A stretch of 63,668 bases of DNA, filler included, from Craspedostauros australis (Eukaryota): assembly GCA_030167865.1 (NCBI GenBank). It is 8 parts of 8 records of this genome, joined end to end, with 100 filler letters (N's around TTAATTAATTAA, not from the genome) between each part and the next. Parts side by side here need not be neighbours in the genome. Positions count along the whole stretch, not along the records: positions 1 to 12,794 come from JALAGF010006501.1; 7 more parts are not named here. One strand, written 5' to 3'. The position numbers and the translations under genes are program-made. Shown here one piece after another: positions 1 through 44,917 of this stretch (within the stretch, counting starts at the first letter, position 1; each line of letters begins with the position of its first letter). Under the pieces are notes generated by a model. That model saw only the letters and a list, made by a program, of their open reading frames with translations. It was not told the DNA's origin and made no database searches.

Positions 1-891
1 CAAGCAAACCAGTGACAACAAGGGGCCAAAACTCCACAACTAGTGTTATCGTGAGTGCATCAACTGCGACCTGGAGGTAGTAGGCACTGACATCATCGTA
101 TGACGTCAGAGGATCGGTCATTGTGATCCTCGGAATCGAGATTATATTTTAGTCATGGTATGCTGACCTGTCTAGCCTAGCNGANTGCATCATCNAGCAC
201 GTGGCAACAACATTTAGGATNCAGAACAACATCGTCAGAGGTGATGCATGCACCTNGTCGACGTAGACGGATCAATCCATATGTGATCAAACAGAGATCA
301 AGATTAGGCAAGACCAGGAGAGATGAAGAAAGACCCAAGGGCAAGAATAACACGAGATATCGTGTAGATCAACATGCCATCTTGGGCAATGTTTTAGGAA
401 AGACTGCGAGATAAACCACGAGGTAATCGAGCAGCATGTTAGCAACCCGTGCAATAGGCACCATCATTAGCAATAGGAGATCATCATCTCATAATACAAA
501 CTCAATCATCAATTGACTACAACTAACTTAGAACACAACAACACCAAACACACCGACTCCACCTATTGGATTGATCACCCAGGCGGCGTCGTAAGTGCAG
601 TGTTTGGTGCTCCCCTCTTGTCCTGTGTGTAATTGCTGATTATCATTCTCTGCGATTAGCGCGGAAGAACGCCCTTGCTTGATTGGCTCCCCCACAGCAA
701 AGCACGGAACAACTGTTGTAGCTGGAGAGCATGCGAAGCCCCACAAGAAAGCTCGTTTCGTCATTGCCAAGTCGCAGTTGACTTGCGCACAATTAGTACT
801 AGTTCAACGGTTACTTGTTGACATTGTTGTTTTTTGCCTCATTTTGACATTTCTAGTTGCACAAGAGCTCATAATTCGCAAGAACACGAGA

Positions 892-1905
892 ATGCTTCTA
901 CCAAGTGGAACTGTCGCCGCTGTGGGGTTCGGGCTGATTGGGTCTCGCCCAAGAGGCTTGGGCACAAACAGCCTTTCCAGGGAGTCACTGCGGCAGTTCG
1001 CATCCGTGTTCGGAACGCACCCTGACATCATGCACATCTTGTGGAACGAGCTCTGTCATGCGCGAGCTCTGCCGCTCACGGCGAAACCGAAACATCTCCT
1101 GTGGACGTGCGCGTTTCTTCGTCTGTATGTGTCTGAGACTGCCCTGGCCACCATGTGCAAGTGTTCTGCCAAAACACTTCAGAAATGGATGTGGCTAATG
1201 ATGGAAGCCGTTGAAACCGTTAAAGATTGCATTGTAAGTACTAATAAATTCGCACACCCGAACTGCGACACAAAATTCTGTTCACTCCATTCACTCACAC
1301 ATGGTTCTGATTTTTCCTGGTACCGCTCCCATTGACAGATTGTCTGGAACCGTCGTTTTGTTGGCGCAAGTCACGATGCAAAAGCTCTTGTCACTGTGGA
1401 CGGGACTGACATGCAAATCACCGAACCCAAACCGTTTAGCCAGAAGTGGTGCTCGTTCAAATTTCGCGCTGCTGGTTTGCGTTACGAGTTGGCTGTTGCG
1501 ATTTCCACTGGTGAGATCGTTTGGGCGAATGGTCCTTTCCCGTGTGGCCTGTTGAACGATCTTTCGATCTTCCGTCTGGGTCTGAAACCAAAATTAGTGC
1601 AGCACGAAGTCGTCGTTGCAGATGCCGGATACCGTGGGGACCCGTGTGTGTTTCCCCCAACTTTTCGCGCGGATGGCATCATGCGGTGCCGCCATGAAAC
1701 GGTCAACAGGAGAATCAAGCACTGGCAATGCATGCACCTGAAGTGGCGGCACCATGTGGACAAGCATCGCCTTGCATTCAACGCGGTTGCCATCGTGACG
1801 CAAATTGAATTGAGCAACGGCTACCCCTCGTTTGACGTGGTTGTCGCGATGCAAGAAGCACGCGAACGTGCCATCGCCCGTGCAGATGCACAACACACAC
1901 ACTAA
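892..1905 (+). CDS. PIF/Harbinger-type DDE transposase (DDE_Tnp_4-like), 2 exons: 892-1233, 1339-1905 (about 302 aa)
   Basis: Intron 1234 GTAAGT...TTGACAG 1338 joins KDCI|IVWNRRF in frame. Motifs VDGTD, GLRYELAV, GPFPCG..ND, ADAGYRG and RHETVNRRIK give a D-D-E triad. N-terminal region has F.SVFG..P and KHLLW...FLRLY. TIRs not located. Confidence 0.85.
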
Positions 1906-3170
1906 TTAGCGCATCCCACGTAGTACAAACAAATAGCTAGAATTTAACAAGCATAAAATTATAATCGTAGATGTCCTCGCTTGTCTGTTGTAGTGAGTTC
2001 GTGTTTGGTGTCCTGGTTTGAAAAGGCAAGCACAGCATCACACTGACTGGTTCATCGTGTACATGCTATGCTTTACTGTGGGGAACACTATTTGTCAACA
2101 ATGCATCTCGGACCCACTGACAGTGCAGTTTGGAGAACGGGTAAGGATGTTCGTCCCCATGGGGCGACATGCTTCCTGGATGAAAAGAGGATGGACTAGG
2201 CAACCTGACACGAACTTGTATGCAAGAGAGTCCTGCTACAATACAGTGAATACATCAGAGAAACACCAGGTTACCGTGGAACCCCGTGGACGCGGACTGG
2301 AGGTGGTTGGGAGCATGGGGCACCACCGCCACCGCCGGGGACAGGAGAGACACAAACGCTGTGGCCACCACCAACTGATGTAGCGCACATGGACGAACAG
2401 CACGCGAACAAATTGTGCTGCCTTGAAACAAGAACGATGGTGGAGGAAACAAACAACTTTGCCTGGGCAGAGTGTGACAGTGGACGAACTCCGTTGATTG
2501 AACTGCAGAGTATGATGCGTCATTCTGTGTATGTTGTAGGAGCACGTGATGCATCGGAACAGCAATGTGAGATGGAACCGCCGGGACAAAGGCACAAAAG
2601 TTACCTGCACGAAGAAACGTACGAGTTGGAAAGACGATGTCCACCTGAGGACATCGCGCCGACGAGCAAGGGGGCAAATGTGTCCCACGGCGATGATGAA
2701 GGAAAGGGGCGATCCCATGGGTCGTGGGTCTGGAAATTTGCGTGTGTTGGAGCAGACGCGACAGGGGTGGAACGAGCGCAAAGCGGACATCATTGTCATT
2801 GGCACACAGTGCAGGACATGTCAGCCACGTACGAAAATGAGCTCGACGTCATGTCGACACGGGAAAGGCGTGCTCAAGTAGTCCCATTTGTGCATGACTT
2901 TACCAATCCCAAAACCGTGCAACACGCCTCAAGCGTGAAGAAAGCAAAAACCGACCATTATATGGCATTTACCGCGCTCTCCATGGCATTGCCCTCCGAC
3001 CGACCTCTTCTGCTACTCGTACTTGACCCATCGCCTTCCGAGGGTACGATCTAGACTGCGATCATAGGAGCGGATGGGTCTGCCTTGGCTCCTGTTTCTC
3101 TGTTTGCATTGAAGACTCATTCCTCGATGTCTTGTTGGGGGTTTGCACTCCACCCATCGCCTTCCAAGGG

Positions 3171-3415
3171 TGCGATCATAGCATGCGATCATAGCATGCG
3201 ATCATAACATGCGATCATAACATGCGATCATAACATGCGATCATAACATGCGATCATAACATGCGATCATAACATGCGATCATANNNNNNNNNNNNNNNN
3301 NNNNNNNNNNNNNNNNNNNNNNNNNATGCGATCATAGAATGCGATCATAGAATGCGATCATAGAATGCGATCATAGAATGCGATCATAGAATGCGATCAT
3401 AGAATGCGATCATAG
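3171..3415. repeat. 13-bp minisatellite (CATGCGATCATAA / AATGCGATCATAG), interrupted by an N gap
   Basis: Tandem copies visible on both sides of the gap at 3285-3325. Left copies mostly end -TAAC, right copies -TAGA. Confidence 0.95.
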
Positions 3416-4070
3416 GAGCGGATGAGGAATACCGCTTTGGCTGTTCTGTCCGTGTCCCATGATAAAGAACATCTGCGAAAGTAGAAGGATGAGTGTCAGA
3501 GTGCGTGGTACAAGTACAAAGTAATCGGAGATATGATTTCTACGAGTACAGCGTGTGCGATGGGGGACGATACAGCATCAATACGTGCGCTACGGCACGA
3601 AAGGATACCACTTCTGATGGTTGACACCTCAACTTCCCACTATCACTGCCACGGATGCAAATGACAGACGTGGGGCAGCTGCCCCCATGCATCACCTCTT
3701 TGGGCCAAGTATCGAAGTGTGTACTCTGTGAGGAGTTGCGACATTTGGAGCGTTGTATCGTTGCTCCTTTGACCACCACGCCCGCACTGATGAGTGCGAG
3801 CAAGAGACTGTTGCTGCAGAGAAGCGAAGTTGCTCTCTCTGCCTCGCCCAAGATTGATCTTGTTGACATGCCTGAAATTGTTTGGAACATCTCATTTCCT
3901 CGCCCTCACAATACATCAACAACATCATCCATCAACCACCACAACTCACAATCTCGAGAGAGACAGAGAGAGCCCAACTTCCGCTGGTGCCATTCACATC
4001 TTCGTCACTGGTGTGACCGACGCAAAACCCACCAACACAGCCGCAGCCGCAGCCACATTCATACCCAACA

Positions 4071-7000
4071 ATGGATGACAAGACAACATATGATGCGTCT
4101 GCTAAACTTCCGCCACCAATCCCTGTCCCCTCTGCGCCAGTAGCATCTGAAGCAGACATGCAAGCAGACATGCAAGCCTATGTTCCAGTTGCAGAGGTCG
4201 TCCCAGGATGGAGCTGGAAAGGTGTTGTGACTGTGGTGTTGCTCGTCGTCGGTGTAGCCGGTACCACTGCAGCAGGCGTAGTGTTCCTCCTAAGTGACGA
4301 GACCAGCAGCAACAGCAACATAGACGGCAGCAGTGGTAATCAGCCCACCGCAAATGGCCCCCGTGATCGGTTATCACAAAATCCAACCCTCACATCCACA
4401 GATGTACCAAGTGATCTACCCTCGTCGAACCTAACCCTCACACCCACACATATACCGAGTGATCTACCCTCGTCGAACCCAACTCACACACCGACGGAGA
4501 TACTGAGTGATCGGCCATCACAAAATCCAACTCACACACCGATGGAGATACCGAGTGATCTACCCTCAGATACACCGAGTGATCTACCCTCGGACATACT
4601 GAGTGATCTACCCTCGTCGAACCCAACCCACACACCGACGGAGATCCTGAGTGATCGGCCATCACAAAATCCAACCCACACACCGACGGATACACCGAGT
4701 GATCTACCCTCAGATGTACCAAGTGATCTACCCTCGTCGAACCCAACTCACACACCGACGGATATAGCGAGTGATCTACCCTCGTCAATCCCAACCCACA
4801 CACCCACGGATACATCGAGTGATTTAGCCTCGTCGAACCCAACTCGCACACCCACGCATATACCGAGTCATCGACCCTCGTCGAACCCAACGCACAGCTT
4901 CGATCAATCGGATGCTTTCTTCACCATTTGGGAGGTGCTCGCGCCCATACTCCAAGAAGAGCCAACTTTCATCGATGCAGCCATACTCGCCAGCTCAGCC
5001 AGTACCGCGCATCGAACGCTGGACTGGATGGCAAACAGCAACCACCAATACCTCACATCAATGATCGTGGAAGATGTACAAGCCAATGCCACGCGTCTAT
5101 TGGAGTACTATGCAGTAGTGAGCATATACTTTTCACTCGATGGAGCCAATTGGATCGACAAGATGGACTTTCTATCAGATGCTGACGTGTGCGACTGGCA
5201 CTCTTCCTCTGGTGGTGTGACATGCGATGATGGCCATGTGGTACAAGTAGCTTTGGGTGACGAAGGCATGCGGGGCACGCTCGATGCAGCCCTGTATCAT
5301 CTCTCGCACCTTGAGCAATGGTCAATGGAAATGACTTACAGCTCCCGCCCACAGATCAATGGTATCATCTTCAGTCACATTGGCATGTTGAGTATGCTAT
5401 CAGAGCTAACTCTAGTGTACATGGAACTGCGAGGTGCGTTTCCGTCGGAATTGTATCCACTTACACAATTGACACATCTTGACCTGCATTCCAGCAGCTT
5501 CGCTGGACCACTTCCTTCCGAGATTGGTCAACTCACAGCGCTCACCTATCTTGATCTGAGATATACTGACTTCACTGGACACCTTCCATCCGAGATTGGT
5601 CAACTCACAGCGCTCACCATTCTTAATCTGAGATATATTGACTTAACTGGGCAGCTTCCGTCCGAGATTGGTCAACTGACAGCTCTCACCTATCTTGATC
5701 TAGAAGGGACCAATTTCACTAGACCGCTTCCATCCGAGATTGGTCAACTCACAGCTCTCACCCGTCTTGATCTGGGAACTACTGACTTCACTGGGTGGCT
5801 TCCATCCGAGATTGGTCAACTGACAGCGCTCACCTATCTTGATTTGGCAACTACTGGCTTGGCTGGACGGCTTCCATCCGAGATTGGTCAACTGACAGCC
5901 CTCGCTTTTCTTCTTCTGAGATATACTGGCTTGACTGGACAGCTTCCATCCGAGATTGGTCAACTCACAGCTCTCACCCGTCTTGATCTGGGAACTACTG
6001 ACTTCACTGGGTGGCTTCCATCCGAGATTGGTCAACTCACAGCTCTCATCAGTCTTGATCTGAGATCTGTCGATCTCACTGGGCGCTTTCCATCCGAGAT
6101 CGGTCAACTGACAGCGCTCACCTTTCTCGTCATGCAGTTCACCGATCTCACTGGACGGCTTCCGTCCGAGATCGGTCGGCTGACAGCGCTTACCTATCTT
6201 GATCTGGCACCTACTGACTTAACGGGACAGATTCCATCCGAGATTGGTCAGCTGACAGCCCTCGCTTCTCTTGATTTGGGACCTACTGACTTAACTGGAC
6301 AGATTCCATCCGAGATTGGTCAACTGACAGCTCTCACCAGTCTTGATCTGGGAACTACTGACTTAACTGGACAGATTCCATCCGAGATTTGTCAGCTGAC
6401 AGCACTGAAACGTCTTGATCTGAGATATACCGATCTAACTGGGCAGCTTCCATCCGAGATCGGTCAGCTGACAGCGCTCACCTATCTTGATCTGGCACCT
6501 ACTGACTTCACTGGGAAGCTTCCATCCGAGATTGGTCAGCTGACAGCGCTCGCCTTGCTTGATCTAAGATCTACTGAGTTCACTGGGCAGCTTCCATCCG
6601 ATATTGGTCAACTGACAGCATTGAGATATCTTGACCTACTATGGGCCGACTTCACTGGGCAGCTTCCATCCGAGATTGGTCAGCTGACAGCACTGAAACA
6701 TCTTGAACTGGCTTTGACTGGCTTCACTGGACAGCTTCCATCCAAGATTGGCCAGCTTACAGCGCTCACCTTTCTTGGCCTGGGTTTGACCGATCTCACT
6801 GGACAGCTTCCATCCGAGATTGGTCAGCTGACAGCACTGAAACGCCTTGCTCTAAGATATACTGATCTAACTGGGCAGCTTCCATCCGAGATTGGTCAGC
6901 TGACAGCTCTCACCCGTCTTGATTTGGGATCGACTGACTTCACTGGACGGCTTCCATCCGAGATTGGTCAACTGACAGCGCTCACCTTTCTTGATCTGAG

Positions 7001-7514
7001 ATCTGCTGACTTCACTGGGCAGCTTCCATCCGAGATTGGCCGACTGGCGGCGCTCACCTTGCTTGGTCTAGAATTGACCAAATTCACTGGGCGGCTTCCA
7101 TCCGAGATTGGTCATCTGGCAGCACTGAAACAACTTGAACTGGCTTTGTCTGGCTTCACTGGACAGCTTCCATCCGACATTGGTCAGCTGACAGCACTGA
7201 AACATCTTGAACTGCATTTCACTGACTTCACTGGACAGCTTCCATCCAAGATTGGCCAGCTGACAGCGCTCATCTTTCTTGATCTGAGATCTGCTGACTT
7301 CACTGGACAGCTTCCATCCGAGATTGGTCAACTGGCAGCATTGCGATATCTTGATTTGGGACCGACTGACTTCACTGGACGGCTTCCATCCGAGATTGGT
7401 CAACTGACAGCCCTCACCTTTCTTGATTTGGAAGGGACCAATTTCACTAGACCGCTTCCAACTCAGCTTGGTCTCCTCACATCATTGGATATAGGCAAGA
7501 TTCCTGGAATCTAA
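4071..7514 (+). CDS. Single-pass (probably type II) membrane LRR receptor-like protein: short N-terminal tail, TM, Pro/Ser/Thr stalk, LRRNT-like cap, about 30 plant-type 24-aa LRRs; no kinase domain
   Basis: 1147-aa intronless ORF. Hydrophobic segment at about aa 52-74 (VVTVVLLVVGVAGTTAAGVVFLL); SDLPSSNPTHTPT repeats; cap YYAVVSIYFSLDGANW...DVCDW...GVTC; repeats LTALxxLxLxxTxFTGxLPSEIGQ. Confidence 0.92.
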   Translation: MDDKTTYDASAKLPPPIPVPSAPVASEADMQADMQAYVPVAEVVPGWSWKGVVTVVLLVVGVAGTTAAGVVFLLSDETSSNSNIDGSSGNQPTANGPRDRLSQNPTLTSTDVPSDLPSSNLTLTPTHIPSDLPSSNPTHTPTEILSDRPSQNPTHTPMEIPSDLPSDTPSDLPSDILSDLPSSNPTHTPTEILSDRPSQNPTHTPTDTPSDLPSDVPSDLPSSNPTHTPTDIASDLPSSIPTHTPTDTSSDLASSNPTRTPTHIPSHRPSSNPTHSFDQSDAFFTIWEVLAPILQEEPTFIDAAILASSASTAHRTLDWMANSNHQYLTSMIVEDVQANATRLLEYYAVVSIYFSLDGANWIDKMDFLSDADVCDWHSSSGGVTCDDGHVVQVALGDEGMRGTLDAALYHLSHLEQWSMEMTYSSRPQINGIIFSHIGMLSMLSELTLVYMELRGAFPSELYPLTQLTHLDLHSSSFAGPLPSEIGQLTALTYLDLRYTDFTGHLPSEIGQLTALTILNLRYIDLTGQLPSEIGQLTALTYLDLEGTNFTRPLPSEIGQLTALTRLDLGTTDFTGWLPSEIGQLTALTYLDLATTGLAGRLPSEIGQLTALAFLLLRYTGLTGQLPSEIGQLTALTRLDLGTTDFTGWLPSEIGQLTALISLDLRSVDLTGRFPSEIGQLTALTFLVMQFTDLTGRLPSEIGRLTALTYLDLAPTDLTGQIPSEIGQLTALASLDLGPTDLTGQIPSEIGQLTALTSLDLGTTDLTGQIPSEICQLTALKRLDLRYTDLTGQLPSEIGQLTALTYLDLAPTDFTGKLPSEIGQLTALALLDLRSTEFTGQLPSDIGQLTALRYLDLLWADFTGQLPSEIGQLTALKHLELALTGFTGQLPSKIGQLTALTFLGLGLTDLTGQLPSEIGQLTALKRLALRYTDLTGQLPSEIGQLTALTRLDLGSTDFTGRLPSEIGQLTALTFLDLRSADFTGQLPSEIGRLAALTLLGLELTKFTGRLPSEIGHLAALKQLELALSGFTGQLPSDIGQLTALKHLELHFTDFTGQLPSKIGQLTALIFLDLRSADFTGQLPSEIGQLAALRYLDLGPTDFTGRLPSEIGQLTALTFLDLEGTNFTRPLPTQLGLLTSLDIGKIPGI
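4366..4896 (+). repeat. Coding tandem repeat making a mucin-like Pro/Ser/Thr stalk
   Basis: Recurrent AGTGATCTACCC / TCGTCGAACCCA / ACTCACACACCG 12-nt modules. Confidence 0.85.
5460..7475 (+). repeat. 28 tandem 72-bp LRR-coding units
   Basis: Near-invariant CTTCCATCCGAGATTGGTCA(A/G)CT core every 72 bp; 28 x 72 = 2016 bp. Confidence 0.95.
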
Positions 7515-8224
7515 TTCAGCATCATTATCCCAAAACAACTGGCCAAGCTTATGTACTGTTTTGGGATGATTGGAGATGGTGTGCTGCTGAGATATAGCAT
7601 CAAGAGTAGTTACCAAAGTCGTTGGCCTCCTTGCTTGTCCCTAAATACTAGACTAGTTGGGACAGACTTGGTCCGGGACCCATCCGGGACTCAATCGTCC
7701 ATGTCGTGTACATGGTACCCGGTATCCGAAACCGATACTGCAATGAAAGGCTACCGCGCGCATGGTGTGTAGTTGAACCACGATCCATGCTCTGCTCACC
7801 CTCCAGCTCATGCACCCACGCCACCTGTCCAGCTAACCATCTTGCAGAACCTGCACGCATCTTGAAGTACATCCACACCCATGGATCAAGTACTGCTCTA
7901 CGGATGGAGCCGCTGAATGGCTGTGAGTGTGTCGAACCATCACGACATGTTGCTGAGCAACAAGAACGGCTGAAGTACGACAGCGTGAACCCTGTCCTTT
8001 TACTCGATCGTCCTATGAACTGTAAGCTTAACACATAAAACAAGCAATCAGAAACAATCTTCACAGCTTACTTCCGAGTCTACTACAATTACATCATCGT
8101 CTGATACAGCTTTGTTCTCAACATCAAACGGCGTCAAAACCGGTTGAAGGACAGACCATCCTCCTGACAACGTGCAAAAGACACGGAATACCAACTAGAC
8201 TTGTCCATTTCTCATAGAACTATA

Positions 8225-8970
8225 TATTGGAAATCCGGGGTTATTGTTAGTACTGTAATCTAACCCACTGTTAGAAACTGTACCGTTTTAGAACTGTGAG
8301 CACAATCTCACTTTCTCTTCCGATTTCATCTTCGTAGCAGGCATCTGTCGCAGTGGCGACACGGGGCGTCCTGTTGTCTCTTAGGTGCTTCCCCCTTCAT
8401 TCATCATGCTCTGTTCTTGCTTCCTTGTCTCTGCATCGTCGTAGCTGTCTACGCTTGCATGGTAGGGATCTGCAGTCTTGAGCACTTGCCTATCTCATGT
8501 TTCCGTTGTTGATCTCATGACACCATTGTCTCATGATCGATGTCACCCTTGGCGATGTTTCAAACCCTGGGATGTTCTGATCCTTTCTGATGTTCCAAAC
8601 CTGCGGATGTTCTTGTCCACAGGAGGGGCACGTGCTATCCTCTGAAGAAGGTGCGTCACTTGCCCATGGACTTGCTGTTCTGATCGACGTCGTCATTTGC
8701 ATGGTTGCCATGGTTGGCGCGGTATCGGGACCCCCTGATCCGCCATAGGTGTCGTCTTTGCGTTACTGGAGGACAGGCTATCCTCCTCGCGGTAGTACAG
8801 GTGTCAATCACGTCCGTGTCCTTAGTCATAGTCAGAATGACATGGTATTCAAAGGTGTGACGAATAGTCTCCGAACATGTGACGAATAATATTCAAAGCT
8901 GTGACGAGTAATGTTGGGAGGTGCGGCAATCGTGGGTATTCCGACAAAGTCGTACCCTCAATTCCTATCA
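8225..8970 (-). repeat. 3' LTR of copia A (TGATAGGAAT...ATTTCCAATA, about 746 bp)
   Basis: Starts right after the PPT; both ends are homologous to the LTR at 10774-11565. Confidence 0.8.
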
Positions 8971-9044
8971 CCCTTCCATTGTCGCATCGACAACATAACA
9001 TCCATCATCACTATCCTTCTCTCTCACCTTTCGCCTTACTCCCA

Positions 9045-10773
9045 TTAATCCATTGCAGACCGCAGTTGGATGAAGTGGCTCTTGTGGTTGTCGTAGATCT
9101 CCTTTTTGGTGTTCTTTGTGAAGCCGTCTGCGATGTTGTCTTCCGATCGCACGAACTTGGTTACGGCTTCTCCATTTTTGACGAGCTCACGTATGAAGTG
9201 ATGTCGGATGTCGATGTGCCTTGTCCTTGCGGAAGTCGATGGGTTGGAGGCGATGAAGATCGCTCCAACGTTGTCGACCATAACGTCCGCGGGTTTGTGC
9301 ATCTTTAATCCGATGTCGCTCATCAGTTGCGTCACGAAGCGGATCTCTTTCCCTGCTTCTGACAGTGCGACGTACTCTGCTTCTGTCGAGCTGAGTGTTA
9401 CGCTGCGTTGTGCCTTTGATCTCCATATGATCGGCACTCCTTGTAATAGGACGATGTGCCCTCCTACACTGATGCGATTGTCCTTGTCACCCGCGAATTT
9501 GCTGTCAGTGAATATTGCAATCTTCCATGCATCGTTGGCAAGTGGACTTGGTTTCATCTTCAGTCCATAATCTCTCGTGTCCCATACGAACTTCATGACT
9601 CGTAGCATCTCTTTGTATGCTAAGGCTGTTGGTCCGTCCAGCACCTTGGTCAATTCTCGCACTGCATTGGCGATGTCGGGTCGAGAGTGTTTCACCAGGT
9701 ATAGCAGCATGCCTACTCCACTTCGGTATCTACTGTGTCGCTGTTCGTCCACCTTGGGTGCATCACTATTCCTTTGGATGTCCTGCCCTGGCGTCCCAGG
9801 TGTTCCGTATCGTTGTNNNNNNNNNNNNNNNNNNNNNNNNNNNNNNNNNNNNNNNNNNNNNNNNNNACAGTGCGACGTACTCTGCTTCTGTCGAGCTGAG
9901 TGTTACGCTGCGTTGTGCCTTTGATCTCCATATGATCGGCACTCCTTGTAATAGGACGATGTGCCCTCCTACACTGATGCGATTGTCCTTGTCACCCGCG
10001 AATTTGCTGTCAGTGAATATTGCAATCTTCCATGCATCGTTGGCAAGTGGACTTGGTTTCATCTTCAGTCCATAATCTCTCGTGTCCCATACGAACTTCA
10101 TGACTCGTAGCATCTCTTTGTATGCTAAGGCTGTTGGTCCGTCCAGCACCTTGGTCAATTCTTGCACTGCATTGGCGATGTCGGGTCGAGAGTGTTTCAC
10201 CAGGTATAGCAGCATGCCTACTCCACTTCGGTATCTGCTGTGTCGCTGTTCGTCCACCTTGGGTGCATCACTATTCCTTTGGATGTCCTGCCCTGGCGTC
10301 CCAGGTGTTCCGTATCGTTGTAGTTTCACCACATCGCTTCCGAACGTATCGATGATGTTCTTGAGGATGTGTGGCTGGTTGACCCAACAGTTCGACTTGT
10401 CGTGGTTGAATATGATCTTGCAGCTCAGGTAGTCTTCCAGATCTTCCTCCACTTTGACGCCGAACCGTTCTGCTCGGATGTCCTTCACGAGCTTCTTCAG
10501 TTCCTGCTCTCCACCGATGCAGAGGCAATCGTCCACATAGGTACCGATCAGTAGCAGTCTCCCTTCCTGATTCCGAATCAGTAGGCAAGGGTCCACCTCG
10601 CTTTGTCTGAACCCTAGTTTGAATAGGATGTCGACGAGCTTCTTATTCCATTGTCTCGCGCTCTGCACGAGTCCGTAGATGGTCTTCTTGAGCAGCAGAC
10701 ATTCGTCAGTTTCGTGCTTCATGCCTTTCGGGCATTGCATGTAGATCTCCTCGTCGAGGTCTTCATGCAGGAA
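9045..10773 (-). pseudogene. copia A pol fragment (RT + RNaseH), 5'-truncated by the insertion; about 455 bp duplicated across the N gap
   Basis: ORFs 9766-10740 and 9045-9752 overlap in protein sequence. The frame continues upstream only to FLHEDL at the LTR B junction. Confidence 0.85.
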
Positions 10774-11565
10774 TGTTGGAAATCCGGGGTTATAGATATA
10801 GTCTAATGCTTATTACACTGTACCGTTTTAGAACTGTGAGAACAACATACTCATTTCTCAAATCGTCAACTCGTTTGCCCATGATGATGATGATGGCCTC
10901 CTGTAGTTGCCCCTCATAATCATCATCACAATCTCTCTCTCCGTCATGTCCATTTCATTGCTCATGACAAGTGCATTTCATCATGCTCAGCTGTTGAGAG
11001 ATCAGTCTACACTCCTGAGGCGCATGCATGCCGATGCTCGATTCACTCTCTTCTCATTAGACATCCGTCACTCATTCAGTGCACTCTTCCGTGTTGTTCA
11101 CTCATTCTTCTCACATGTCCACCAACATTCACACTTGCTCAGAACATGGAGTTCTGGCACGATCAGTGCAGTCCTTCGATGCTGTTCCAGTCCGCGCTTT
11201 GTTCTCCTTCGCTGGTTCTCTGTCAGTCACGTAATCATGTTCTGGGTTCCGAGCGACTCAACCGTGATAGCGTTTTCGCATAGATGTCTCAGGTTAACCG
11301 GTCAACCCTCATGCTTGGAACACTTTGGTGTTCCGGTCTCCCTTTCACATCCATCGTTCGCCATGTCCGTTCGTCAATCCACTCAAACCATGTCTCACAA
11401 TTAGTCTGTCCGTCGTCCGTCATACTCTTGACACACAGAGGAGGAGGTCCACAATGGACTTGGGAGCGTGTCCGACTTTGATAGATCGGTCAGTCTAATT
11501 TTGGTATTATGGGAGGTGCGGCAATCTAGGATAATACGACATAGTCGCACCCTCGATTCCTGACA
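10774..11565 (-). repeat. 3' LTR of copia B (TGTCAGGAAT...ATTTCCAACA, 792 bp)
   Basis: TG...CA ends with short imperfect inverted termini, preceded by the PPT. Confidence 0.85.
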
Positions 11566-12894: not shown

Positions 12895-15800
12895 TATAGC
12901 AAGCTGATCCGTGGCACTCAAAGGAGGCACGGATTGGATCGAAGGTCCAACTGGGTAAAACCAAAGGTGCATCACATCCTGGTGAAACACAGCTGAATAA
13001 GCGCAAGAATACGGCGTTCGGAGAGACGAAATCCGAACGGGCAAGGCCATCCAACGCGCAATCCATCCGCGACGTTTCATCGCTTTTCAAGACCAACAAA
13101 ACAACAAACATTCCATCAACAACGCCCATTTGCGCTCAGTCCACCTTTCTGATTGGCTGTGAATTCCTACGGTTCACACAATCACTGGTGCGTCACATCG
13201 GTTCACAACTCCTTCGCCATCCCAATCATCCATCGGACATCGGTCGCGCGCCAACAAGTAATCCAACCGGGAAATTCACACGGACCTGAGTGACATCTTT
13301 TCACCGGTCACCCTTCGCATCGGATTAAGTGTGGGTGTCTTCGCATTCTGTCAATCGGGAAATTCGCTTGGTCCCATTGGGTGTTTTTATCAATCAATCA
13401 TCCAAGATCACCCAACTACAGTCCACTCGAGATACCGTTGACACCTTCGCCGTCACTGACGCTTTCCATCCGGCACCACTTCCAATCCCGACGAATTCCG
13501 ACAAGCGCAGAAAGTCACCGTCACATTCTGGCGAACGTTTCGACATCACAGCGGATCGCGCAGTCATTTCCAAGTGTGACCACTTTCCTGGGAGCTGCGG
13601 GAAAATACTCGTCCGATAATATTAGCAAATTGGACCAACGACCACATCATCGCAACGCTCAACTACACGATGTCCAACGCAATCCCAATCAACGACCCCA
13701 TCCTGGCGCACGTCCTCAACGTTCTCGGATATGACGACTCGTCTACTGAATGGCTTATCTTGCATGCCGAAGAGATCCGAACCATCATGGATTTCGCTTC
13801 GCTCCATCGCGAGGACATGCTCGAGTTCAATGCCACCTTCGAACGATCTGATCCTGAACCCGACTACGTAGCCCAGCTGTCTAAGCTAGCAGTTCGGAAA
13901 TTCACAAGTGCCATTGGCTGGTTCAGTGTTCAACCTAACCCCACTGCAGAGACATGGCAGGAACTCAACCAAGCTTCGTACATGGAGTATGTCGCTCGGA
14001 CGTTCACACCCTCGCCTGCATCCTCCACCGCCATGCCTGACGCAGCCACCAGCGCATTCCCCTTCGAACCAACGAAGACCGAACCAACGGAGAAGACCGG
14101 ACGCGACCTTGCCGCAGGTTTCAACCGTAGCATCAAACGTAACATTAGCGACTACCCAAAGTTGTCTGATGATAAATACTTCGCTACGTTCCATCGTCGT
14201 CTGCGTGCCACCGCTGCTGCTCATGGCATCTCCAATGTTCTCGATGTTGACTACACCCCATCCGATGAACAAGCCGAGCTCTTCAAAGTGCAGTCCACCT
14301 TCCTGTTCAACGTGTTTGTATCCAACCTGCAGACCACGAAGAGNNNNNNNNNNNNNNNNNNNNNNNNNNNNNNNNNNNNNNNNNNNNNNNNNNNNNNNNN
14401 NNNNNNNNNNNNNNNNNNNNNNNNNNNNNNNNNNNNNNNNNNNNNNNNNNNNNNNNNNNNNNNNNNNNNNNNNNNNNNNNNNNNNNNNNNNNNNNNNNNN
14501 NNNNNNNNNNNNNNNNNNGACCTGTGGCAACACAAGGTTCACGAACTTGAGGCTTTGCGTGATGATCCAATCGACGACGCAACGAAGAAGGAGTGGTTGA
14601 CCAACGCCATTGAGGCAGACAAGGCGCTGTACCAGTCTATCTTCCAGACTGACTACCTGCAGACCGCGATCCTGGCCTACTCACCTGGCACAACCACGAC
14701 CACCATGGAGTTCGATACCCTCGTTGAGCTCGTCCGTTCGTACGCTGTCCAACTCGATGGCCACGACGCCAACAAGCCNNNNNNNNNNNNNNNNNNNNNN
14801 NNNNNNNNNNNNNNNNNNNNNNNNNNNNNNNNNNNNNNNNNNNNNNNNNNNNNNNNNNNNNNNNNNNNNNNNNNNNNNNNNNNNNNNNNNNNNNNNNNNN
14901 NNNNNGAGGAGTTCCAGAAGCTGTCGGATAAGCAACGCAGCGACTTCCTCCAAGCCCGGCGAGCCAAGTCTGGACGTGGTAAGAAGGACAAGACTAGACG
15001 CTCCGCCAACAACACAAACCGCAGTGACTCCTCATCCAACCAGAACGACCAACAGGACACTCAGACCAACGACAATGGTAGTAACAATAACGAGTCTAGT
15101 TCTACCGCAGGAACAGCAATCAACCGTATGCTATCCAGTGCCATGTCTAGCGCGTCTGGGAACCCGCCGACTACCCTCGTCATTGACGGTCGCACCTACA
15201 CCCTGTCTCACACGAACGTATCGTACAAGTTCAACAACGCGAACGTGACTGTGCAAGGCGCATTGGTGGATGGAGGTGCGAACGGCGGTCTCGTTGGAGA
15301 TGACATGCTGGTGATGGAGTCCACGTCCAACCGGGCTGATGTTTCTGGAATCGGTGACGCAGAGATCAAGGATCTGGCGCTGGTCACGGCCACCGCTGTC
15401 ATCCAGACCATCTCAGGACCGGTAATCGGTTGGTTCCATCAGTACGCCAACTACGGGAAAGGGCGCACCATCCATTCTGCCAACCAGCTCGCGGCGTTTG
15501 GATTGGATGTCAANNNNNGACCCAAGAACCTCCCTGGCGGTCGGCAAACCATCGTCACGCCAGACGGATTCATCATCCCACTCACCGTGCGTCAAGGCCT
15601 CGCATACATGGATATGCGCAAGCCAACTCAGGCGGAACTAGACGATCTGCCACACGTGTTCTTCACCTCCGACCAAGAATGGGACCCATCTGTCCTGGAC
15701 GGGGAGGCTGATCTGGACAACNNNNNNNNNNNNNNNNNNNNNNNNNNNNNNNNNNNNNNNNNNNNNNNNNNCCATGTCTAGCGCGTCTGGGAACCCGCCG

Positions 15801-16811
15801 ACTACCCTCGTCATTGACGGTCGCACCTACACCCTGTCCCACACGAACGTATCGTACAAGTTCAACAACGCGAACGTGACGGTGCAAGGCGCATTGGTGG
15901 ACGGAGGTGCGAACGGCGGTCTCGTTGGAGATGACATGCTGGTGATGGAGTCCACGTCCAACCGAGCTGATGTTTCTGGAATCGGTGACGCAGAGATCAA
16001 GGATCTGGCGCTGGTCACAGCCACCGCTGTCATCCAGACCATCTCAGGACCGGTGATCGGTTGGTTCCATCAGTACGCCAACTACGGGAAAGGGCGCACC
16101 ATCCATTCTGCCAATCAACTCGCGGCGTTTGGATTGGATGTCAATGAGCGACCCAAGAACCTCCCTGGCGGTCGGCAAACCGTCGTCACACCAGACGGAT
16201 TCATCATCCCGCTCACCGTGCGTCAAGGCCTCGCATACATGGACATGCACAAGCCAACTCAGGCGGAACTAGACGATCTGCCACACGTGTTCTTCACCTC
16301 CGACCAAGAATGGGACCCATCTATCCTGGACGGGGAGGCTGATCTGGACAACATTCCCGCAACCGAACGCGGCGACGGCGACGACATCGACATCACCATC
16401 TCCAAGTGCGTTCAGTACGTTCAATCCGCTGCTACGCTCGGGGATGGGGAGAAGGCAACCAAGGCCGGACCACGCAACATCGTGGGTAAAGCGCCCAACT
16501 TCCATGCGCTACGGCCGTACTTTGGGTGGATTCCAGCAGACCGCGTGCGTGACACTCTTGCATGTACTACCCAGTGGTACCGCATGTCTGAGCGTTATCC
16601 CATGCGTAAACACTATAGGTCTAGATTCCCCGCAGCCAATGTCAGTCGACTACACGATGTTGTTTCCATGGACACGTTGTTCTCTGACACGCCTGCTCAT
16701 CATGATGGAGTCCCCGGACATGGTGGGTGTACCATGGTGCAGGTGTTTGTAGGATCCAACACGCGCCTCACAGCGGCGTACCCTCTGGCAAGCGAATCCC
16801 ATGTTCCCCAT
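12895..16811 (+). mobile_element. Diatom CoDi-like Ty1/copia retrotransposon, 5' part (probable LTR end near 13121, leader, gag, protease, start of integrase)
   Basis: gag-like SIKRNISDYPKL...RATAAAHGISNVLD; protease LVDGGANGG; integrase approach PMRKHYRSRFPAANV.RL...VSMDTLFSDTPA. Order PR then IN is copia-type. Confidence 0.88.
13670..16811 (+). CDS. gag-pol polyprotein (partial; gapped; protease region duplicated across the gap at 15722-15771)
   Basis: ORFs 13670-15781 and 15774-16859 share about 190 aa of near-identical sequence; no stops in the sequenced parts. Confidence 0.85.
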
Positions 16812-29478: not shown

Positions 29479-31047
29479 TCAGCCCAATCCGCCACTTGCA
29501 CCCGCGTTGCTAAATCTGCAGCATCTCTGCCATCGGTCGATCTGGGTTCGAATCGCTGTGATCATTGCTTGCTGCGGCGCGCATAGGGGAGTATCGCGTG
29601 CGCGCTTCTTGTCATCCGGAGACAGCAGGGTAGGATCCTGCACCGGACCTTCGCCAAGGTATATGAAGGAATGGTTCACACCCGACATGGCTGCAAGGGT
29701 TCCATAGAATTCTGTGCGACCGTACAGATTGGGCAGTATCTCGATCACCCCGCCGCAACGGGGCATGAAAGGAATTCCAGCAAGACCAGCGCCATGAGGT
29801 GTCAAGAGGATGTCAACATTGGCGAATGCCTCCATCTGGTCCTTGAAGAAGATGCGCTCAAAGAAGAATACCGGTGGTGTGTATGGCAGCCTGAATGCCT
29901 CCCGTATACGATCGGACATGTTGTGCGCTCCGATCAGACGTCTCGTCGATTTGCGATTGAAGATGGCGATGCGTGGCGGAGCGAACTGCTTCCCATTCGG
30001 TTCACCGTCGTTGTTTTCAGAGGCCGCATGCAACGGGGTGCCTTCCAGTTCGTTCGCAGTCGTTGCGCCGCAGAACTGTTCTTGGTATTGATCTAATCCG
30101 CGAGCAGCTAGCGCCCTTCTTCGGAAGTGCTCCATATCGTCTGTGTACACTCCACGGTAACCTTCTTCTCGTATCGTATACGCCGCGAGCAGTTCCCGCG
30201 GATCCGACTTGTACTCTTTAATGAATACCTTCGGCCACGATTGGACGAGGGAGACGTTGTTTGCCTCCAAGACTCTGGCCATGCCCTTGGAGAAATGCGA
30301 GTTCATGAAGAACACGCCGAACTTTCTTGGATCAATGAGAAAGATATGTTCTGCGTGGGGAAAGCTTTGCCACAACGACCAGCACGGCACGACGTGCTGC
30401 ATTTGATGAGGAAATTCGTCGGCGTACGAGTAATCCTTGACGCTGCATACGACCGTCTTGATTCGTTCCATCGGATTCTGGTCGTCCGCGGCAGTCGCCG
30501 TGATTCCATCCCCGGCAGTTGTGGCTCCATCTCCTTTGCTGCGGCGCCACACTTCACTGAGATTGCCATGAAAGCTCTCAAAGACAACTTCGTTGTTGTA
30601 CGTTCTCGGATAGTGCGTGAAGTCCAATATATGCGGGATCTTGAAATCGGAAATATCGCAGGACACGCCGTGCAGACTGCCCAGCATCTCCTCCGTCGGC
30701 CACCGCATCATGAATGCTGGGAATTCCGTGATGTTGCGAGTCCATCGGATGGGTGGGTGGTTGCTGTTGGTTTCTTGAATCATCGATTGGAGGAAAGCGG
30801 TCTGGGGAAGGTTGGTGGCTTCCAGCCTGTGTGGTGCCAATGCGAACGACATGAAGGCCACCACGAAGATGGCAATCATGCTGATCGTCAACTGGAGATT
30901 GCCGTTGCGCATGATCCAAGGCTTGGATCGGGCTCGTGCTGCCGCATTGAGCCGTTGGTTCGGCCCATGGGAGGACAAGAATGAAGGGCCTGCAATCCGG
31001 TGCCCTTTGTGGAATAGAGTTGGCGGCTCGATCTCCATGCCAGGCAT
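29479..31047 (-). CDS. Glycosyltransferase family 61 (DUF563-like), type II membrane protein
   Basis: N-terminal TM, FPH..QH..PCWS, RIAIFNRKSTRRL, FKDQMEAFANVDILLTPHGAGLA...MP..GGVIEI. Confidence 0.88.
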   Translation of the reverse strand: MPGMEIEPPTLFHKGHRIAGPSFLSSHGPNQRLNAAARARSKPWIMRNGNLQLTISMIAIFVVAFMSFALAPHRLEATNLPQTAFLQSMIQETNSNHPPIRWTRNITEFPAFMMRWPTEEMLGSLHGVSCDISDFKIPHILDFTHYPRTYNNEVVFESFHGNLSEVWRRSKGDGATTAGDGITATAADDQNPMERIKTVVCSVKDYSYADEFPHQMQHVVPCWSLWQSFPHAEHIFLIDPRKFGVFFMNSHFSKGMARVLEANNVSLVQSWPKVFIKEYKSDPRELLAAYTIREEGYRGVYTDDMEHFRRRALAARGLDQYQEQFCGATTANELEGTPLHAASENNDGEPNGKQFAPPRIAIFNRKSTRRLIGAHNMSDRIREAFRLPYTPPVFFFERIFFKDQMEAFANVDILLTPHGAGLAGIPFMPRCGGVIEILPNLYGRTEFYGTLAAMSGVNHSFIYLGEGPVQDPTLLSPDDKKRARDTPLCAPQQAMITAIRTQIDRWQRCCRFSNAGASGGLG

Positions 31048-31749
31048 GCAATCCTCGCGATGCCAACTGTCTCCACTTCAATCGCTCACGCTATGCAGTT
31101 GGGGTTGGGGGCAGCGACAGAATGTGTCAAGTTCTGCTCTCTCCCTTGACGCCATCCATCTTCCCGCGCCTTTTCGTTGTTGGGGGCAGCCTCATCCGTG
31201 AGTGAAAAGTTTGGATCTGCACGTGACTGCAACACGCACACAACAAAAAGGAAATGGGTCGAAAGTCATCAACTGCAAGATCCTCCAACATGCTTGATCC
31301 CATTCAGCAGCAACAACAGCAGAAGGCATGTGGTGGTTCGGCTCGTTGTTCGGCTAGAGAGGTCAATGTTCATCTGACTATGGTGCAGGATTATGTGCTG
31401 TTTGTTGCTTTGGTTCTTGTTTTGGGATAGCGAAAACATGTTGGGTAGTTGTCGAGGAGGATCAGCACGTGTTATGTTGGACCTCAACGTCCCTACGGCA
31501 TGAAGGTCGTATAGATGTTCTCATCGCATTTTCGGACGTTTCCATCTCCGGCGATGGGGCAGCGGCGGACTGTGGCGTTGACGAATGCAGTACCTGTGGA
31601 AGCTCGAGGTCGGTTTTTAGACATTCGTTGAATGCATCGGTGCTGCCTGAAAGGACACAGCACCGATGGACGCGCGCGTGGAGGTGTGTGGCGAAGCAGA
31701 GTACTCCGTATCCTTGAGACACATTCATGCGTGCGCGGACCACCGACAT

Positions 31750-43200: not shown

Positions 43201-44917
43201 TTACTCTTCCAAGTCAACTGGATCAATGAGGAATTCGGAAAAGTCCTTGAGCTTGTCGGTGCCTCTGACCTCGTAATCAAGCAATGGCATGAGGGTGACG
43301 TGGAAGTCTTCACCGTAGAGATCGAAGCACTGTCCGATGTACTTGTCCTGCATTCTTTTTCGCGCCATCATCTTGGAGCAGATTTCCTGGGCCTCGCTGG
43401 GTAACGATGCCTTGGTCTTGTCGTACCACTCCGCCAGCTCCTCGGCGTCCTTCTCCGGGAAGATGACCTGGTTGACGACGATGTTGTGTGCGTCGATTCC
43501 GAACTTGGACAATTCCTGGACCAATCGCTCCGTCTCGTAAATGGACAAGAATTCTGGGATGCAGACGCAAACCTGTTCGTGAAGGAATTCAGTTGAGCAG
43601 TTGAGTGGGACATTGTGTTGAATTGGCAAGAGACACACAGAGAGAAGATGGGGAACAGATGAGTATCAGAGAAGTAATGTTGCGACAACCAGAAATTTGA
43701 CGTTCGACGTGGCACTTCACACCAAAGCAAAGGACACCGCTCTACTCGTCCATGTTGCCACCGCAATTGAGGAATAATACTCACGAAAGTGGTGAGAGCC
43801 GGGTCTTGGAAGGCATCGTTGACCTTGTTGATGACGGCGCGCGTATCCTCGAGACGGCCCAAGATGGCGTCCTGGGCGTTGGCTGGGTTGGAACCGCTAC
43901 CGAGCATCGCGGTCGCCTGTCCGATCAAACCTCCGAATCGGTCCTTCAATTCCATGACCTTGCCGAGCGCCTTTTCCAAGATGGTTGGGAAGGAGAGCAA
44001 TCGCAGCGTGTGACCGGTGGGAGCAGTGTCGAAGACAACAACGTCGAAGTCGAGGCCCTGCACCTGCTTCATGAGCTCGGAGAAGGACATGGCCTCGTCG
44101 ATACCTGGGATGCTGGAAGTGAGTTCGGACATCATGGCGGAAAGACCGTCGTCATCGTCCGTTCCCTGCTCCTGCATGTTTCGCTGCATCTCCTCCATGT
44201 CATTGTTGGCATCGATCTCCATGGCGCAGAGGTTGTCGAAGCCCTGGATTGGGGTTGGCTCGCGGCCGATCTTTTGGCAGAAGGCATCACTCAGGTTGTG
44301 CGCTGGATCAGTGGACACGATCAACACCTGCAATAGCAACGGTTGCGATGACAGTGGTATTGATGGCAATGGTGTTGATGATGATAAATAGAGATTGAGT
44401 CCGAGGGTGTTGGTGGGAGAGAGGAATTCACTGTCCAATAGACGCAATTCAGGTTGAGAGAGGTTCGATTGTTTGTGAATGAATTGGTGGCGAGTAATGT
44501 CGTAGCATGATTGACGAATTCATTCATTCAAACACTCCAGAGAGCCACGAGCAGAGCGAGGTCCTGTACGACTATTCCATGAATCCTTGTGCCATGGTGG
44601 AGTCATGGATGCAGAAATCCCCCAAGGTCACACAGCACCAAGTCCACCTTCCTCCGGCCAACCACACCCAATCTACTTCGCCATGCACATAACAATGCAC
44701 AACACAATGCACATAACAATGCAATGAAACCACCCCACGAAGTAGAACGCACCTTCTTCCTGCTCTTGGCAAGCTGAACACCCAAGCAGCAGCTGGTGGT
44801 CGTCTTTCCGACTCCTCCCTTGCCACCAACAAAGACCCATTGCAGCGACTTCTGGTCGATGATGTTCTTCAACGATGGCTCTGGAAGGTCTCCATCATCA
44901 ATCTCAACGTCTGTCAT
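43201..44917 (-). CDS. ASNA1: GET3/ASNA1 ATPase (tail-anchored protein targeting); exons 44917-44753, 44327-43785, 43572-43201
   Basis: [64 protein letters not shown] introns in frame. Confidence 0.97.

Follow-up and report, generated by a model that had tools for sequence, protein, structure and literature searches.

The window analysed here (63,668 nucleotides of Craspedostauros australis DNA, assembly GCA_030167865.1) carries, in the part taken from JALAGF010006501.1, an intronless gene for a diatom LRR receptor-like protein with homogenised repeats, in which the Asn ladder has been swapped for Thr and the C-cap lost (Table 1). Pfam searches of the product, P0001, matched LRRs and PT repeats, together with CUPID and GAAD matches that both fell within the LRR array, and identified no kinase domain, no NACHT/NB-ARC ATPase or N-terminal effector domain, and no Roc-COR/GTPase domain; the frame stops 19 aa past the last full unit. 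Kyte-Doolittle windows of 19 residues exceeded 1.9 only at residues ~51-75, and this hydropathy peak, along with the flanking charges, suggested that the N-terminal tail is cytoplasmic, that the LRRs lie outside and that the protein is located at the cell surface. The architecture, with a topology read from sequence only, is that of kinase-less diatom LRR receptor-like proteins, and it agreed with the stalked, kinase-less receptor that an earlier note on this DNA had proposed. The TE-rich neighbourhood described there was likewise confirmed by transposon neighbours; the MITE-like repeat next to the gene gave 40 other matches among the 40 scored of 331 candidates.

Table 1. Features of the LRR receptor-like gene and its 3' flank (positions along the window).
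Feature	Position	Strand	Basis
Intronless ORF, 1147 aa (P0001), predicted type II membrane LRR receptor-like protein	4071..7514	+	ORF and Pfam
N-terminal tail, ~50 aa, Pro-rich patch, MQAD/MQAN tetrapeptides, putatively cytoplasmic	4071..4220	+	inferred
Single hydrophobic helix, putative signal-anchor, residues ~51-75	4221..4295	+	Kyte-Doolittle
Ser/Pro/Thr/Asp-rich stalk, 24/48-bp repeats, 202 aa	4296..4901	+	repeats, PF04886
N-cap region, Cys374/Cys385, degenerate first LRRs, diatom-type	4902..5438	+	Atlas clusters, genomic matches
28 plant-type LRR units of 72 bp; scaffold homogenised, beta-strand positions hypervariable	5460..7475	+	unit alignment, structure prediction
Unit 4, copy of family terminal unit type (ends FTRP), inside array	5676..5747	+	unit comparison
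96-nt tract, exact duplicate at 5942-6037 (unit 5 = unit 8)	5726..5821	+	repeat scan
Terminal half-unit, stop codon 7512-7514, decayed remnant of next LRR	7455..7560	+	paralogue comparison
~550-bp dispersed repeat, 14-nt terminal inverted repeats, MITE-like, directly 3' of gene	7647..8204	.	genome matches

Outside the array, the number of MQAD/MQAN tetrapeptides differs among paralogues, and the stalk is of variable length and almost missing in some of them. The N-cap, with a pLDDT below 50 in the predicted structure, had nearest Atlas clusters that were mostly from Bacillariophyta, the host itself being a diatom, 119 matches in the genome and 1 weak match among 604 candidates from the protein database. 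The stop codon is common to the subfamily, throughout which the Cys-rich C-cap kept in outgroup paralogues has been lost. Rescue of the C-cap by an intron or by read-through was considered and rejected: no GT..AG introns were found at the joints of contigs from run X1 (145 records, contigs, only guessed to be RNA, possibly of the same source) aligned to the window gene, runs X2 and X3 gave no aligned records, and the post-stop sequence was unrelated or out of frame in most paralogues, so the C-cap remnant was treated as a fossil.

The earlier note had described 28 units of 72 bp with a nearly invariant core and widely varying x positions, and both descriptions were borne out. The units are gap-free and lie in one open frame with no N; unit 1 is atypical, with at least 17 differences from every other unit, and unit 28 continues into the terminal unit. 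Across units 2-27, all 26 units agree at columns L, A, L, L4, P, S and I, and entropy at the five face positions of the beta-strand is 1.87 bits at x2, 2.71 at x3, 1.77 at x5, 2.32 at x7 and 2.81 at x8. Mean identity to the consensus is 0.79 for aa and 0.85 for nt. The ladder position is Thr in 20 of these 26 units and Asn in none, and the NxL(t/s)GxIP motif with an Asn ladder is absent from the window array; Asn occupies the ladder in 26 of 263 subfamily units, and outgroup paralogues keep it. In the predicted structure, beta-strands span x3-x8 in every repeat, and the best fold matches were the plant LRR receptor ectodomains GSO1, FLS2 and RGFR1. Variation is concentrated on the concave strand and the convex helix (LPSEIG) is nearly invariant, a distribution that points to binding on the concave face.

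This distribution also bears on whether the protein is a target rather than a sensor, that is, a coat or adhesin used for attachment by viruses, parasites or bacteria and varied for escape, or a shed decoy. The lack of a signalling domain, the short tail, the loss of the C-cap throughout the subfamily and a long stalk that would push the domain outward would all suit such a role. However, escape variation would be expected on all exposed surfaces, whereas the variation lies on the canonical binding surface and spares the convex helix, and we regard the role of target as quite improbable.

Modules recur at non-adjacent positions, as had been noted. Units 5 and 8 show 0 differences, and the 96-nt tract that they share is the only repeated stretch of at least 60 nt in the window array. 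Among other pairs, differences out of 72 nt number 5 for units 14/20, 4 for 22/26, 4 for 18/25, 6 for 18/24, 10 for 24/25 and 10 for 4/28 (4 of these within the initial 51 nt); all pairs of units 2-27 average 16.0, and inter-unit distance is flat with separation along the array (13.5-17.6 at all lags). Unit 4 is the only one of terminal type among the interior units fetched.

Such a mosaic could also be produced by short-read assembly joining paralogous units at the invariant scaffold. The assembly is fragmented (6734 contigs), contig C5404 was evidently mis-joined at an N gap, breaks or overlaps of several contigs fall within arrays, and no long piece of run X1 spans the array. However, the window array is free of N and only one stretch of at least 60 nt is repeated within it or in 15 other arrays; a repeat present twice leaves one possible unit order, and misassembly of the window array is therefore unlikely. 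Additionally, linkage decays over 10-25 nt, below any assembly word scale, and the per-column selection results are independent of unit order, so that an artefact appears extremely improbable.

Linkage between sites supported recombination inside the units. Values of r2 were 0.15 for sites 1-6 nt apart and had dropped to the null level (0.04) past ~25 nt, with a rho of -0.22 (p 0.0017) in the window gene and p<0.001 family-wide. The decay persisted in pairs with one synonymous site (p 0.014 and 0.0007) and was not significant with both sites synonymous (p 0.06 and 0.14; 27 and 20 pairs); 1 of 480 clonal simulations reached the observed decay. Silent codons travel with the face residues, Lys at x2 following GCACTG in 9/9 units. 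The recombination tests called for by the earlier note were not unanimous, as a PHI-like incompatibility test gave no signal in the window gene (p 0.23) or the pooled family (p 0.99), and of 7 other arrays 3 were positive (p<0.01) and 4 negative; since this test is confounded by multi-state face columns, the r2 decay was used. The half-module pairings listed in that note are all present, but strict four-gamete sets of multi-base haplotypes numbered 0 in the window gene under 3 block definitions (1-2 in the whole family), and the claim of new combinations therefore rests on the linkage-decay test.

The window gene belongs to a young subfamily represented by 22 contigs with N-caps 89-100% identical. 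The 16 arrays analysed hold 4-55 units each, with 190 distinct five-residue faces in 282 units and 1 stop codon in 301 units. Left out of counts were C2402 and C1678 (arrays identical to that of C1374), the partial overlaps C5403, C2692 and C3351 (two C2692 units remained in the all-pairs pN/pS and ladder counts), every first unit, any unit containing N or a stop, and two units of 63 nt. Mean pairwise aa identity of units is 0.67-0.76 in the subfamily vs 0.35-0.49 in six outgroup paralogues from this genome. With 1/16 branches starred, the N-cap tree is star-like, and no duplication order or root is therefore claimed. The nearest unit sits in a different gene for 126/282 units; exact tracts of at least 80 nt between genes occur only at array ends, in 3 gene pairs, and so do not demonstrate recent inter-gene conversion of interiors. 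Inter-gene difference averages 9.0 nt for first and 10.0 for last units, vs 18.4 for second and 14.2 for middle units.

Contigs C813 and C814 are allele-like, in that their first 505 columns match exactly, their last ~500 almost exactly, and they share an upstream contig (C5403) and a downstream one (C855); they carry 15 vs 13 units, with 11 vs 9 differing inner units; the short-read assembly suggests that they are alleles. This exchanged interior, together with the linkage decay, the conserved edge units and the terminal-type unit inside the window array, upheld the intragenic recombination that had been proposed. C1374, C2402 and C1678 hold identical 19-unit arrays, so arrays are not always unstable, and a second allele of the window gene was not found in the genome assembly. 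As a separate observation, one X1 contig matches the C5404 junction yet is nearer to the window sequence over the next 118 nt (2 vs 6 differences), which hints at exchange; contig consensus could also yield it, and it was not counted as evidence.

Selection was assessed by tests each of which assumes no recombination or uses non-tree pairs; family-wide, 117 disjoint close pairs from 261 unique units gave a pN/pS of 1.77 on the face (38 S, 192 N; bootstrap CI 1.30-2.59) and of 0.38 on the scaffold (CI 0.31-0.47), the latter indicating purifying selection. The codon model gave an omega of 1.47 on the face (2dlnL 9.2 vs omega = 1) and 0.28 on the scaffold. With pairs within 5 nt and the all-column silent rate, face pN/pS was 1.36 (CI 0.92-1.98). 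The diversifying change expected on the concave face was thus found across the subfamily but did not reach significance in the window gene alone (pN/pS 1.50, CI 0.85-4.99, 9 pairs; codon model 2dlnL 2.0).

Neutral repeat turnover, in which slippage and unequal exchange are self-running and face positions tolerate any residue, would account for a face pN/pS of 1.04 across all family pairs and for the single-gene results, and it would fit the differing numbers of stalk and tail repeats and the similar homogenised LRR arrays in 26/140 other database proteins. It fits poorly with a family-wide CI that excludes 1, with the rejection of omega = 1 on the face and with the lower values, 0.94 or 0.63, of the ladder, x10 and pre-LP columns, which are exposed but lie off the face, and we consider it very improbable.

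The description of a family with this architecture, in which variation is restricted to the face, the scaffold is under purifying selection, recombination acts below the level of the unit and family-wide face pN/pS exceeds 1, is very probably correct. We propose, with a probability of roughly 0.6, that these genes form a diatom kinase-less LRR receptor-like subfamily that diversifies its binding faces by array recombination and selection. The subfamily would have expanded recently, its proteins holding a short tail inside and a stalk and LRR solenoid outside. Because the homogenised repeats are near-identical, misaligned copies would undergo unequal crossover and short-tract gene conversion, the partners being parts of one gene, two alleles and, probably, paralogues, and this exchange would alter unit number and order and re-pair short beta-strand pieces. 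Point mutations would be favoured at the five exposed positions and the scaffold kept, giving the cell surface an extensive standing stock of binding surfaces. These features suggest a role in recognition and a selecting partner that is itself biological and changing. Parasites, viruses or bacteria would be the most likely partners, at about even odds, with signalling, if any, through a co-receptor, by analogy with the kinase-less plant RLPs cited as doing so in the available part of 10.1101/2024.04.15.589526.

The same diversifying machinery could instead serve to recognise mates, kin or self during sexual pairing or colony adhesion, the kind of role proposed for the diatom LRR proteins MRM2 and MRP2. 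In the available parts of 10.1101/2024.04.15.589526 and PMC6261938, MRM2 has a like outline, with an intracellular N-terminus of ~50 aa, one helix, an extracellular plant-type LRR and no kinase; two sex-regulated LRR receptor-like genes have Ka/Ks >1 between Pseudo-nitzschia species (PMC5485032, available part), and allorecognition genes are among the fungal HIC genes (PMC13449251, available part). However, the MRM2 family is described, in the portion of 10.1101/2024.04.15.589526 available, as small and conserved (11 genes in 8 species), whereas the present subfamily is young and multi-copy with 4-55 units, and a species-level mate signal would be expected to be stabilised, not randomised. We therefore judge this use unlikely. 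Under the preferred reading of a diversifying receptor subfamily, a doubtful extension is that mitotic recombination of near-identical arrays creates new faces within a clonal bloom, as an anticipatory receptor repertoire, with parasites or viruses selecting among clone-mates. Diatom homologues recombine in mitosis at >4 per 100 divisions (10.1101/2020.11.08.373134, available part), and the extension, if true, would amount to a cassette-free, population-level analogue of adaptive recognition in a unicellular alga.

By analogy, the fungal HIC repeat system is a closer parallel than VLR or brown-algal genes. As far as the available part of PMC13449251 goes, fungal HIC NLRs (Podospora HET-D/HET-E/HNWD) share with the diatom genes near-identical repeats having few hypervariable positions under diversifying selection, repeat gain, loss and shuffling, proposed unequal crossover and inter-gene exchange, transposon association, and the rise of HIC from low-conservation ancestors; the fungal alleles are also polymorphic in length, as the putative alleles C813 and C814 may be. 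That source sets HIC at a repeat similarity to consensus of at least 0.7; the window array gave 0.79 aa in our own approximation of Psim, not T-REKS, and the diversifying selection on hypervariable positions holds family-wide and is not significant for the window gene alone. The fungal proteins are intracellular and combine NACHT/NB-ARC with WD40, TPR or ANK sensors and cell-death effector domains, whereas the diatom protein crosses the membrane once, carries LRRs and lacks both an ATPase and an effector domain. The strategy of a fixed scaffold and shuffled face, seen in these intracellular NLRs and in exon-based brown-algal genes, would thus be extended to an intronless cell-surface receptor.

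The two analogies drawn earlier fared less well. VLRs resemble the diatom protein in their 24-aa LRR modules, variable concave face and Thr/Pro stalk. In lamprey and hagfish, somatic assembly fills an incomplete germline gene with flanking cassettes, whereas the diatom genome contains each gene in complete form and no library of donor cassettes was seen, so the analogy fails on mechanism. No other LRR units were found in window positions 1-10000 or beside 20 fetched paralogues, and of 5 extra LRR matches examined 4 were contig ends of family genes and 1 a transposon-broken 6-unit fragment, the genome searches for cassettes giving lower bounds. Brown-algal LRR-ROCO genes likewise come from a stramenopile and are built of plant-type LRR units of 72 nt/24 aa, with shuffled repeats, up to ~50 units per array, positively selected concave positions and a proposed immune role. 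In them, every exon encodes one repeat, introns contain spare repeats, splicing is alternative and a Roc-COR GTPase comes after the repeats, whereas the diatom array is one intronless frame over 28 units, with no GTPase and with exchange cuts inside units; lacking one-repeat exons and Roc-COR, it departs from that model in gene structure.

Plant LRR RLPs and receptor kinases (Cf, RXEG1, FLS2, GSO1) share the 24-aa plant-type LRR solenoid by fold matches, and face-directed diversification occurs in plant Cf genes. The plant receptors have type I topology, in which a signal peptide leads and the membrane helix is C-terminal, and they are built of heterogeneous repeats, unlike the homogenised diatom array. 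Diatom kinase-less LRR receptor-like proteins, including MRM2 and MRP2, share the short N-tail, single helix, extracellular plant-type LRR and lack of a kinase (10.1101/2024.04.15.589526; PMC6261938; available parts), and Seminavis robusta shares lineage-specific expansion, with expanded LRR families (PMC7335047, available part). The subfamily differs from other such diatom proteins in its homogenised units, Thr ladder, missing C-cap and 4-55 units. In the literature searched, with most subscription journals outside its coverage, we found no description of homogenised hypervariable LRR arrays in diatoms. The genes offer a concrete candidate for how diatoms, which are major primary producers, recognise parasites, viruses or partners, and one PCR amplicon per gene would provide a simple readout in which unit order and the five face residues can be traced across strains, clones and infections. 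An LRR solenoid that has a Thr ladder and no cap, and that would tolerate the free exchange of modules, is of interest to structural biology as well. Because the same genome keeps ordinary paralogues, in which the repeats are heterogeneous and both the Asn ladder and the C-cap are present, the origin of the system is traceable.

The tandem array fills the last 60% of the window gene's open frame, and Pfam found LRR and PT repeats in the encoded protein, with no kinase, ATPase or GTPase domain; together with the long stalk listed below, this agrees with the stalked, kinase-less receptor that an earlier note had proposed. The protein probably has a type II topology and sits at the cell surface. 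In an AlphaFold single-sequence model (mean pLDDT 65; N-cap unresolved) the units form a regular solenoid, each with a beta-strand spanning x3-x8, and the best fold matches of the model were plant receptor ectodomains, at low TM-scores of 0.3-0.4. The nearest Atlas protein clusters were mostly Bacillariophyta, which, together with the retroelement relatives named at the end, identifies the host as a diatom.

Features of the window gene, its protein and the surrounding stretch
Feature	Position	Strand	Evidence or remark
Harbinger/IS5-type DDE transposase-like, two in-frame segments	640-1902	+	recognised by eye
Open frame, 1147 aa	4071-7514	+	ORF scan
N-terminal tail, ~50 aa	before hydrophobic helix	+	sequence
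Single hydrophobic helix	residues about 51-75	+	sequence; sole such helix
Ser/Pro/Thr/Asp stalk, 202 aa	after helix, before N-cap	+	sequence
N-cap with two cysteines	between stalk and array	+	sequence
Tandem array, period 72, 28 units	5460-7475	+	repeat analysis; gap-free, N-free
MITE-like dispersed repeat, ~550 bp	7647-8204		14-nt terminal inverted repeats; just downstream of gene
Copia-type retrotransposon frames	9048-10809; 13580-16811	-; +	RT/RNase H recognised by eye; gag-protease-like frame
Glycosyltransferase 61 gene	29482-31077	-	Pfam
ArsA/GET3 ATPase gene	43371-44519	-	Pfam
Trypsin-like protease gene	55963-57090	+	Pfam

Seven scaffold columns are invariant across units 2-27, the five face positions of LxxLxLxx carry 1.8-2.8 bits each, and 27 units display 25 distinct five-residue faces, so that the fixed scaffold and hypervariable face noticed earlier were confirmed. 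The ladder position, usually Asn, is Thr. Adjacent units are not more similar than far-apart ones. The non-adjacent recurrence of modules also held, units 5 and 8 being identical within a 96-nt tract and the remaining proposed pairs lying 4-10 nt apart against a mean of 16.0. The array feature is real and beyond chance. Silent codons travel with the face residues, which indicates that copying, and not convergence, makes modules recur.

The assembly is fragmented, with at least one mis-join in the subfamily (contig C5404). The tract shared by units 5 and 8 is the only repeat of at least 60 nt in the window array, within itself or against 15 other arrays, and unit order is thereby constrained; units 5-7 may be present in a wrong number of copies. 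In sequencing run X1, 145 contigs fell on this stretch, 51 at ≥99%, and none ran across the array; these contigs do not enter the evidence. The window gene showed no second allele in genome-contig searches. Paralogue contigs C813 and C814 match without a difference through the first 505 columns and almost so through the final ~500, differ in their inner units (11 and 9), and both run into C5403 upstream and C855 downstream. In shape this is a heterozygous bubble, very recent paralogues being the alternative, and the identical flanks partly reflect how assemblers report bubbles. One identical 19-unit array is common to C1374, C2402 and C1678. Contig pairs from other LRR subfamilies with heterogeneous repeats (C3813/C3814, L072/L073; C3391/C3393, L079/L081; C4011/C4012, L077/L078) have the same 5' part in both members but diverge towards the 3' end, in their LRR faces or C-caps, and C3813 and C3814 differ in repeat number.

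Collecting paralogues genome-wide, as had been proposed, recovered a subfamily. N-cap DNA matched at least 22 contigs at 89-100% and two more at 77-78% (25 of 25 candidates scored), some of which are haplotypes or partly overlapping fragments of a single locus, and a 72-aa N-cap piece gave 119 matches among 145 candidates. Twenty paralogue contigs were fetched and 16 arrays analysed, the window array included; they hold 4 to 55 units, with a stop codon in one of 301. Pairwise identity between units averages 0.64-0.76 in the subfamily versus 0.35-0.49 in six paralogues that are more distant; these retain the Asn ladder, and the two nearest of them end in a Cys-rich C-cap. Subfamily frames stop one repeat past the array. 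Behind that stop, C5852 (L026) and C4705 (L022) carry an intact or nearly intact in-frame remnant of such a cap; all its cysteines are retained in C5852, so very recent loss or stop read-through is possible there. Asn persists at the ladder position in the 5' units of C5852 and C2061. We read these sequences as pointing to a recent change in which an ordinary LRR receptor-like gene of the diatom lost its cap and its repeats became homogenised, the N-cap tree being too star-like to root this change.

The region 2980-3690 is common to many paralogues at 78-93%, and the duplicated unit therefore includes ~1 kb of upstream sequence; upstream of the gene, a 13-bp tandem repeat (3171-3415) extends across an N gap. 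The MQAD/MQAN tetrapeptide of the inferred cytoplasmic tail varies from 0-2 to >15 copies among paralogues (L025, L002, L031), and the same N-cap follows either of two unlike N-terminal tails, one of the C1627/C1374 type and the other found in the remaining paralogues. In C5088 (L023), units 12 and 14 are 63 nt each, through an in-frame 9-nt deletion, and are duplicated inside the array.

Recombination tests gave a divided answer for the window gene: linkage decayed with distance (rho -0.22, codon-permutation p 0.0017), while neither a PHI-like nor a strict four-gamete test detected recombination. The r2 between variable sites was 0.15 when they lay 1-6 nt apart and reached background once they were more than about 25 nt apart, and only 1 of 480 clonal simulations matched the observed decay. 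Decay was also found family-wide (p<0.001) and in all four other arrays tested (p<0.01). It persisted with one site of the pair synonymous and was not significant with both synonymous (20-27 pairs). Between genes, the outermost units (first and last) are conserved and the inner ones are not, the pattern that unequal exchange predicts; the window gene has a terminal-type unit in its interior, as unit 4, and in other genes blocks of up to 445 nt are duplicated exactly. The sequences suggest, without proving it, that genes also exchange units with one another: the nearest unit belongs to another gene for 126 of 282 units, unit distances are similar within (16.5 nt) and between genes (17.2 nt), and C3389 and C5404 share an identical 3' end although their N-caps are 87% identical. 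Long exact tracts between genes were found only at array ends.

The predicted nonsynonymous excess on the face was seen family-wide and did not reach significance in the window gene alone, where its direction was the same (pN/pS 1.50, CI 0.85-4.99; omega 1.68, 2dlnL 2.0). Across 117 disjoint close pairs drawn from 261 unique units, pN/pS was 1.77 (CI 1.30-2.59) for the face, whose five positions were picked by the LRR consensus and not by their variability, against 0.94 for three further variable positions and 0.38 for the scaffold; when every family pair was included, with silent sites saturated, the face ratio was 1.04. Fitted to a fixed tree, a codon model put omega at 1.47, 0.63 and 0.28 for these three classes and rejected omega = 1 on the face (2dlnL 9.2). 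Since recombination violates the tree model, these values are supportive rather than final. Neutral repeat turnover, the alternative to selection on the face, is ranked lower.

A mechanism can be proposed in which copies with homogenised scaffolds misalign, unit number and order are altered and short strand segments re-paired through crossover and short conversion tracts, and point mutation supplies new face residues, with selection retaining the scaffold and favouring change on the face. The likely driver would be a changing biological partner. Microbial enemies are ranked first as that partner, mate or self recognition second, and an escape or decoy role lower. Through the high mitotic recombination reported for diatoms (10.1101/2020.11.08.373134), diversification within clones is conceivable, if rather unlikely.

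The same dynamics occur in fungal HIC NLRs, named for high internal conservation of their repeats (PMC13449251), and in brown-algal ROCO LRRs (PMC3341825, PMC11378527). The diatom gene belongs to neither, being without the ATPase of the former and without the Roc-COR and one-repeat exons of the latter; the brown-algal likeness drawn earlier holds for dynamics and fails on gene structure. Nor is it a VLR, and the lamprey likeness was not upheld. Its architecture is that of MRM2 and like diatom kinase-less LRR proteins, as portrayed in 10.1101/2024.04.15.589526 and PMC6261938, and LRR expansion is known in Seminavis (PMC7335047). Other proteins also have homogenised LRR arrays with variable faces: of 140 further database proteins (matches with ≥8 units), 26 reach 0.6 unit identity, and all those listed have an Asn ladder. 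A literature search covering mainly openly available papers yielded no description of such arrays in diatoms. What the window gene represents is diversification of the HIC type, carried by a diatom family of LRR proteins that are anchored in the membrane and encoded without introns.

The TE-rich neighbourhood noted earlier was substantiated by the MITE-like repeat, which recurs in 40 or more further copies of 82-94% identity, and the copia elements, just downstream of the gene. The first segment of the transposase-like sequence had no Pfam match. The two named relatives of the gag-protease-like frame come from Phaeodactylum and Nitzschia, and similar LTR sequence adjoins paralogues C813/C814, C5088, C5287 and C853.
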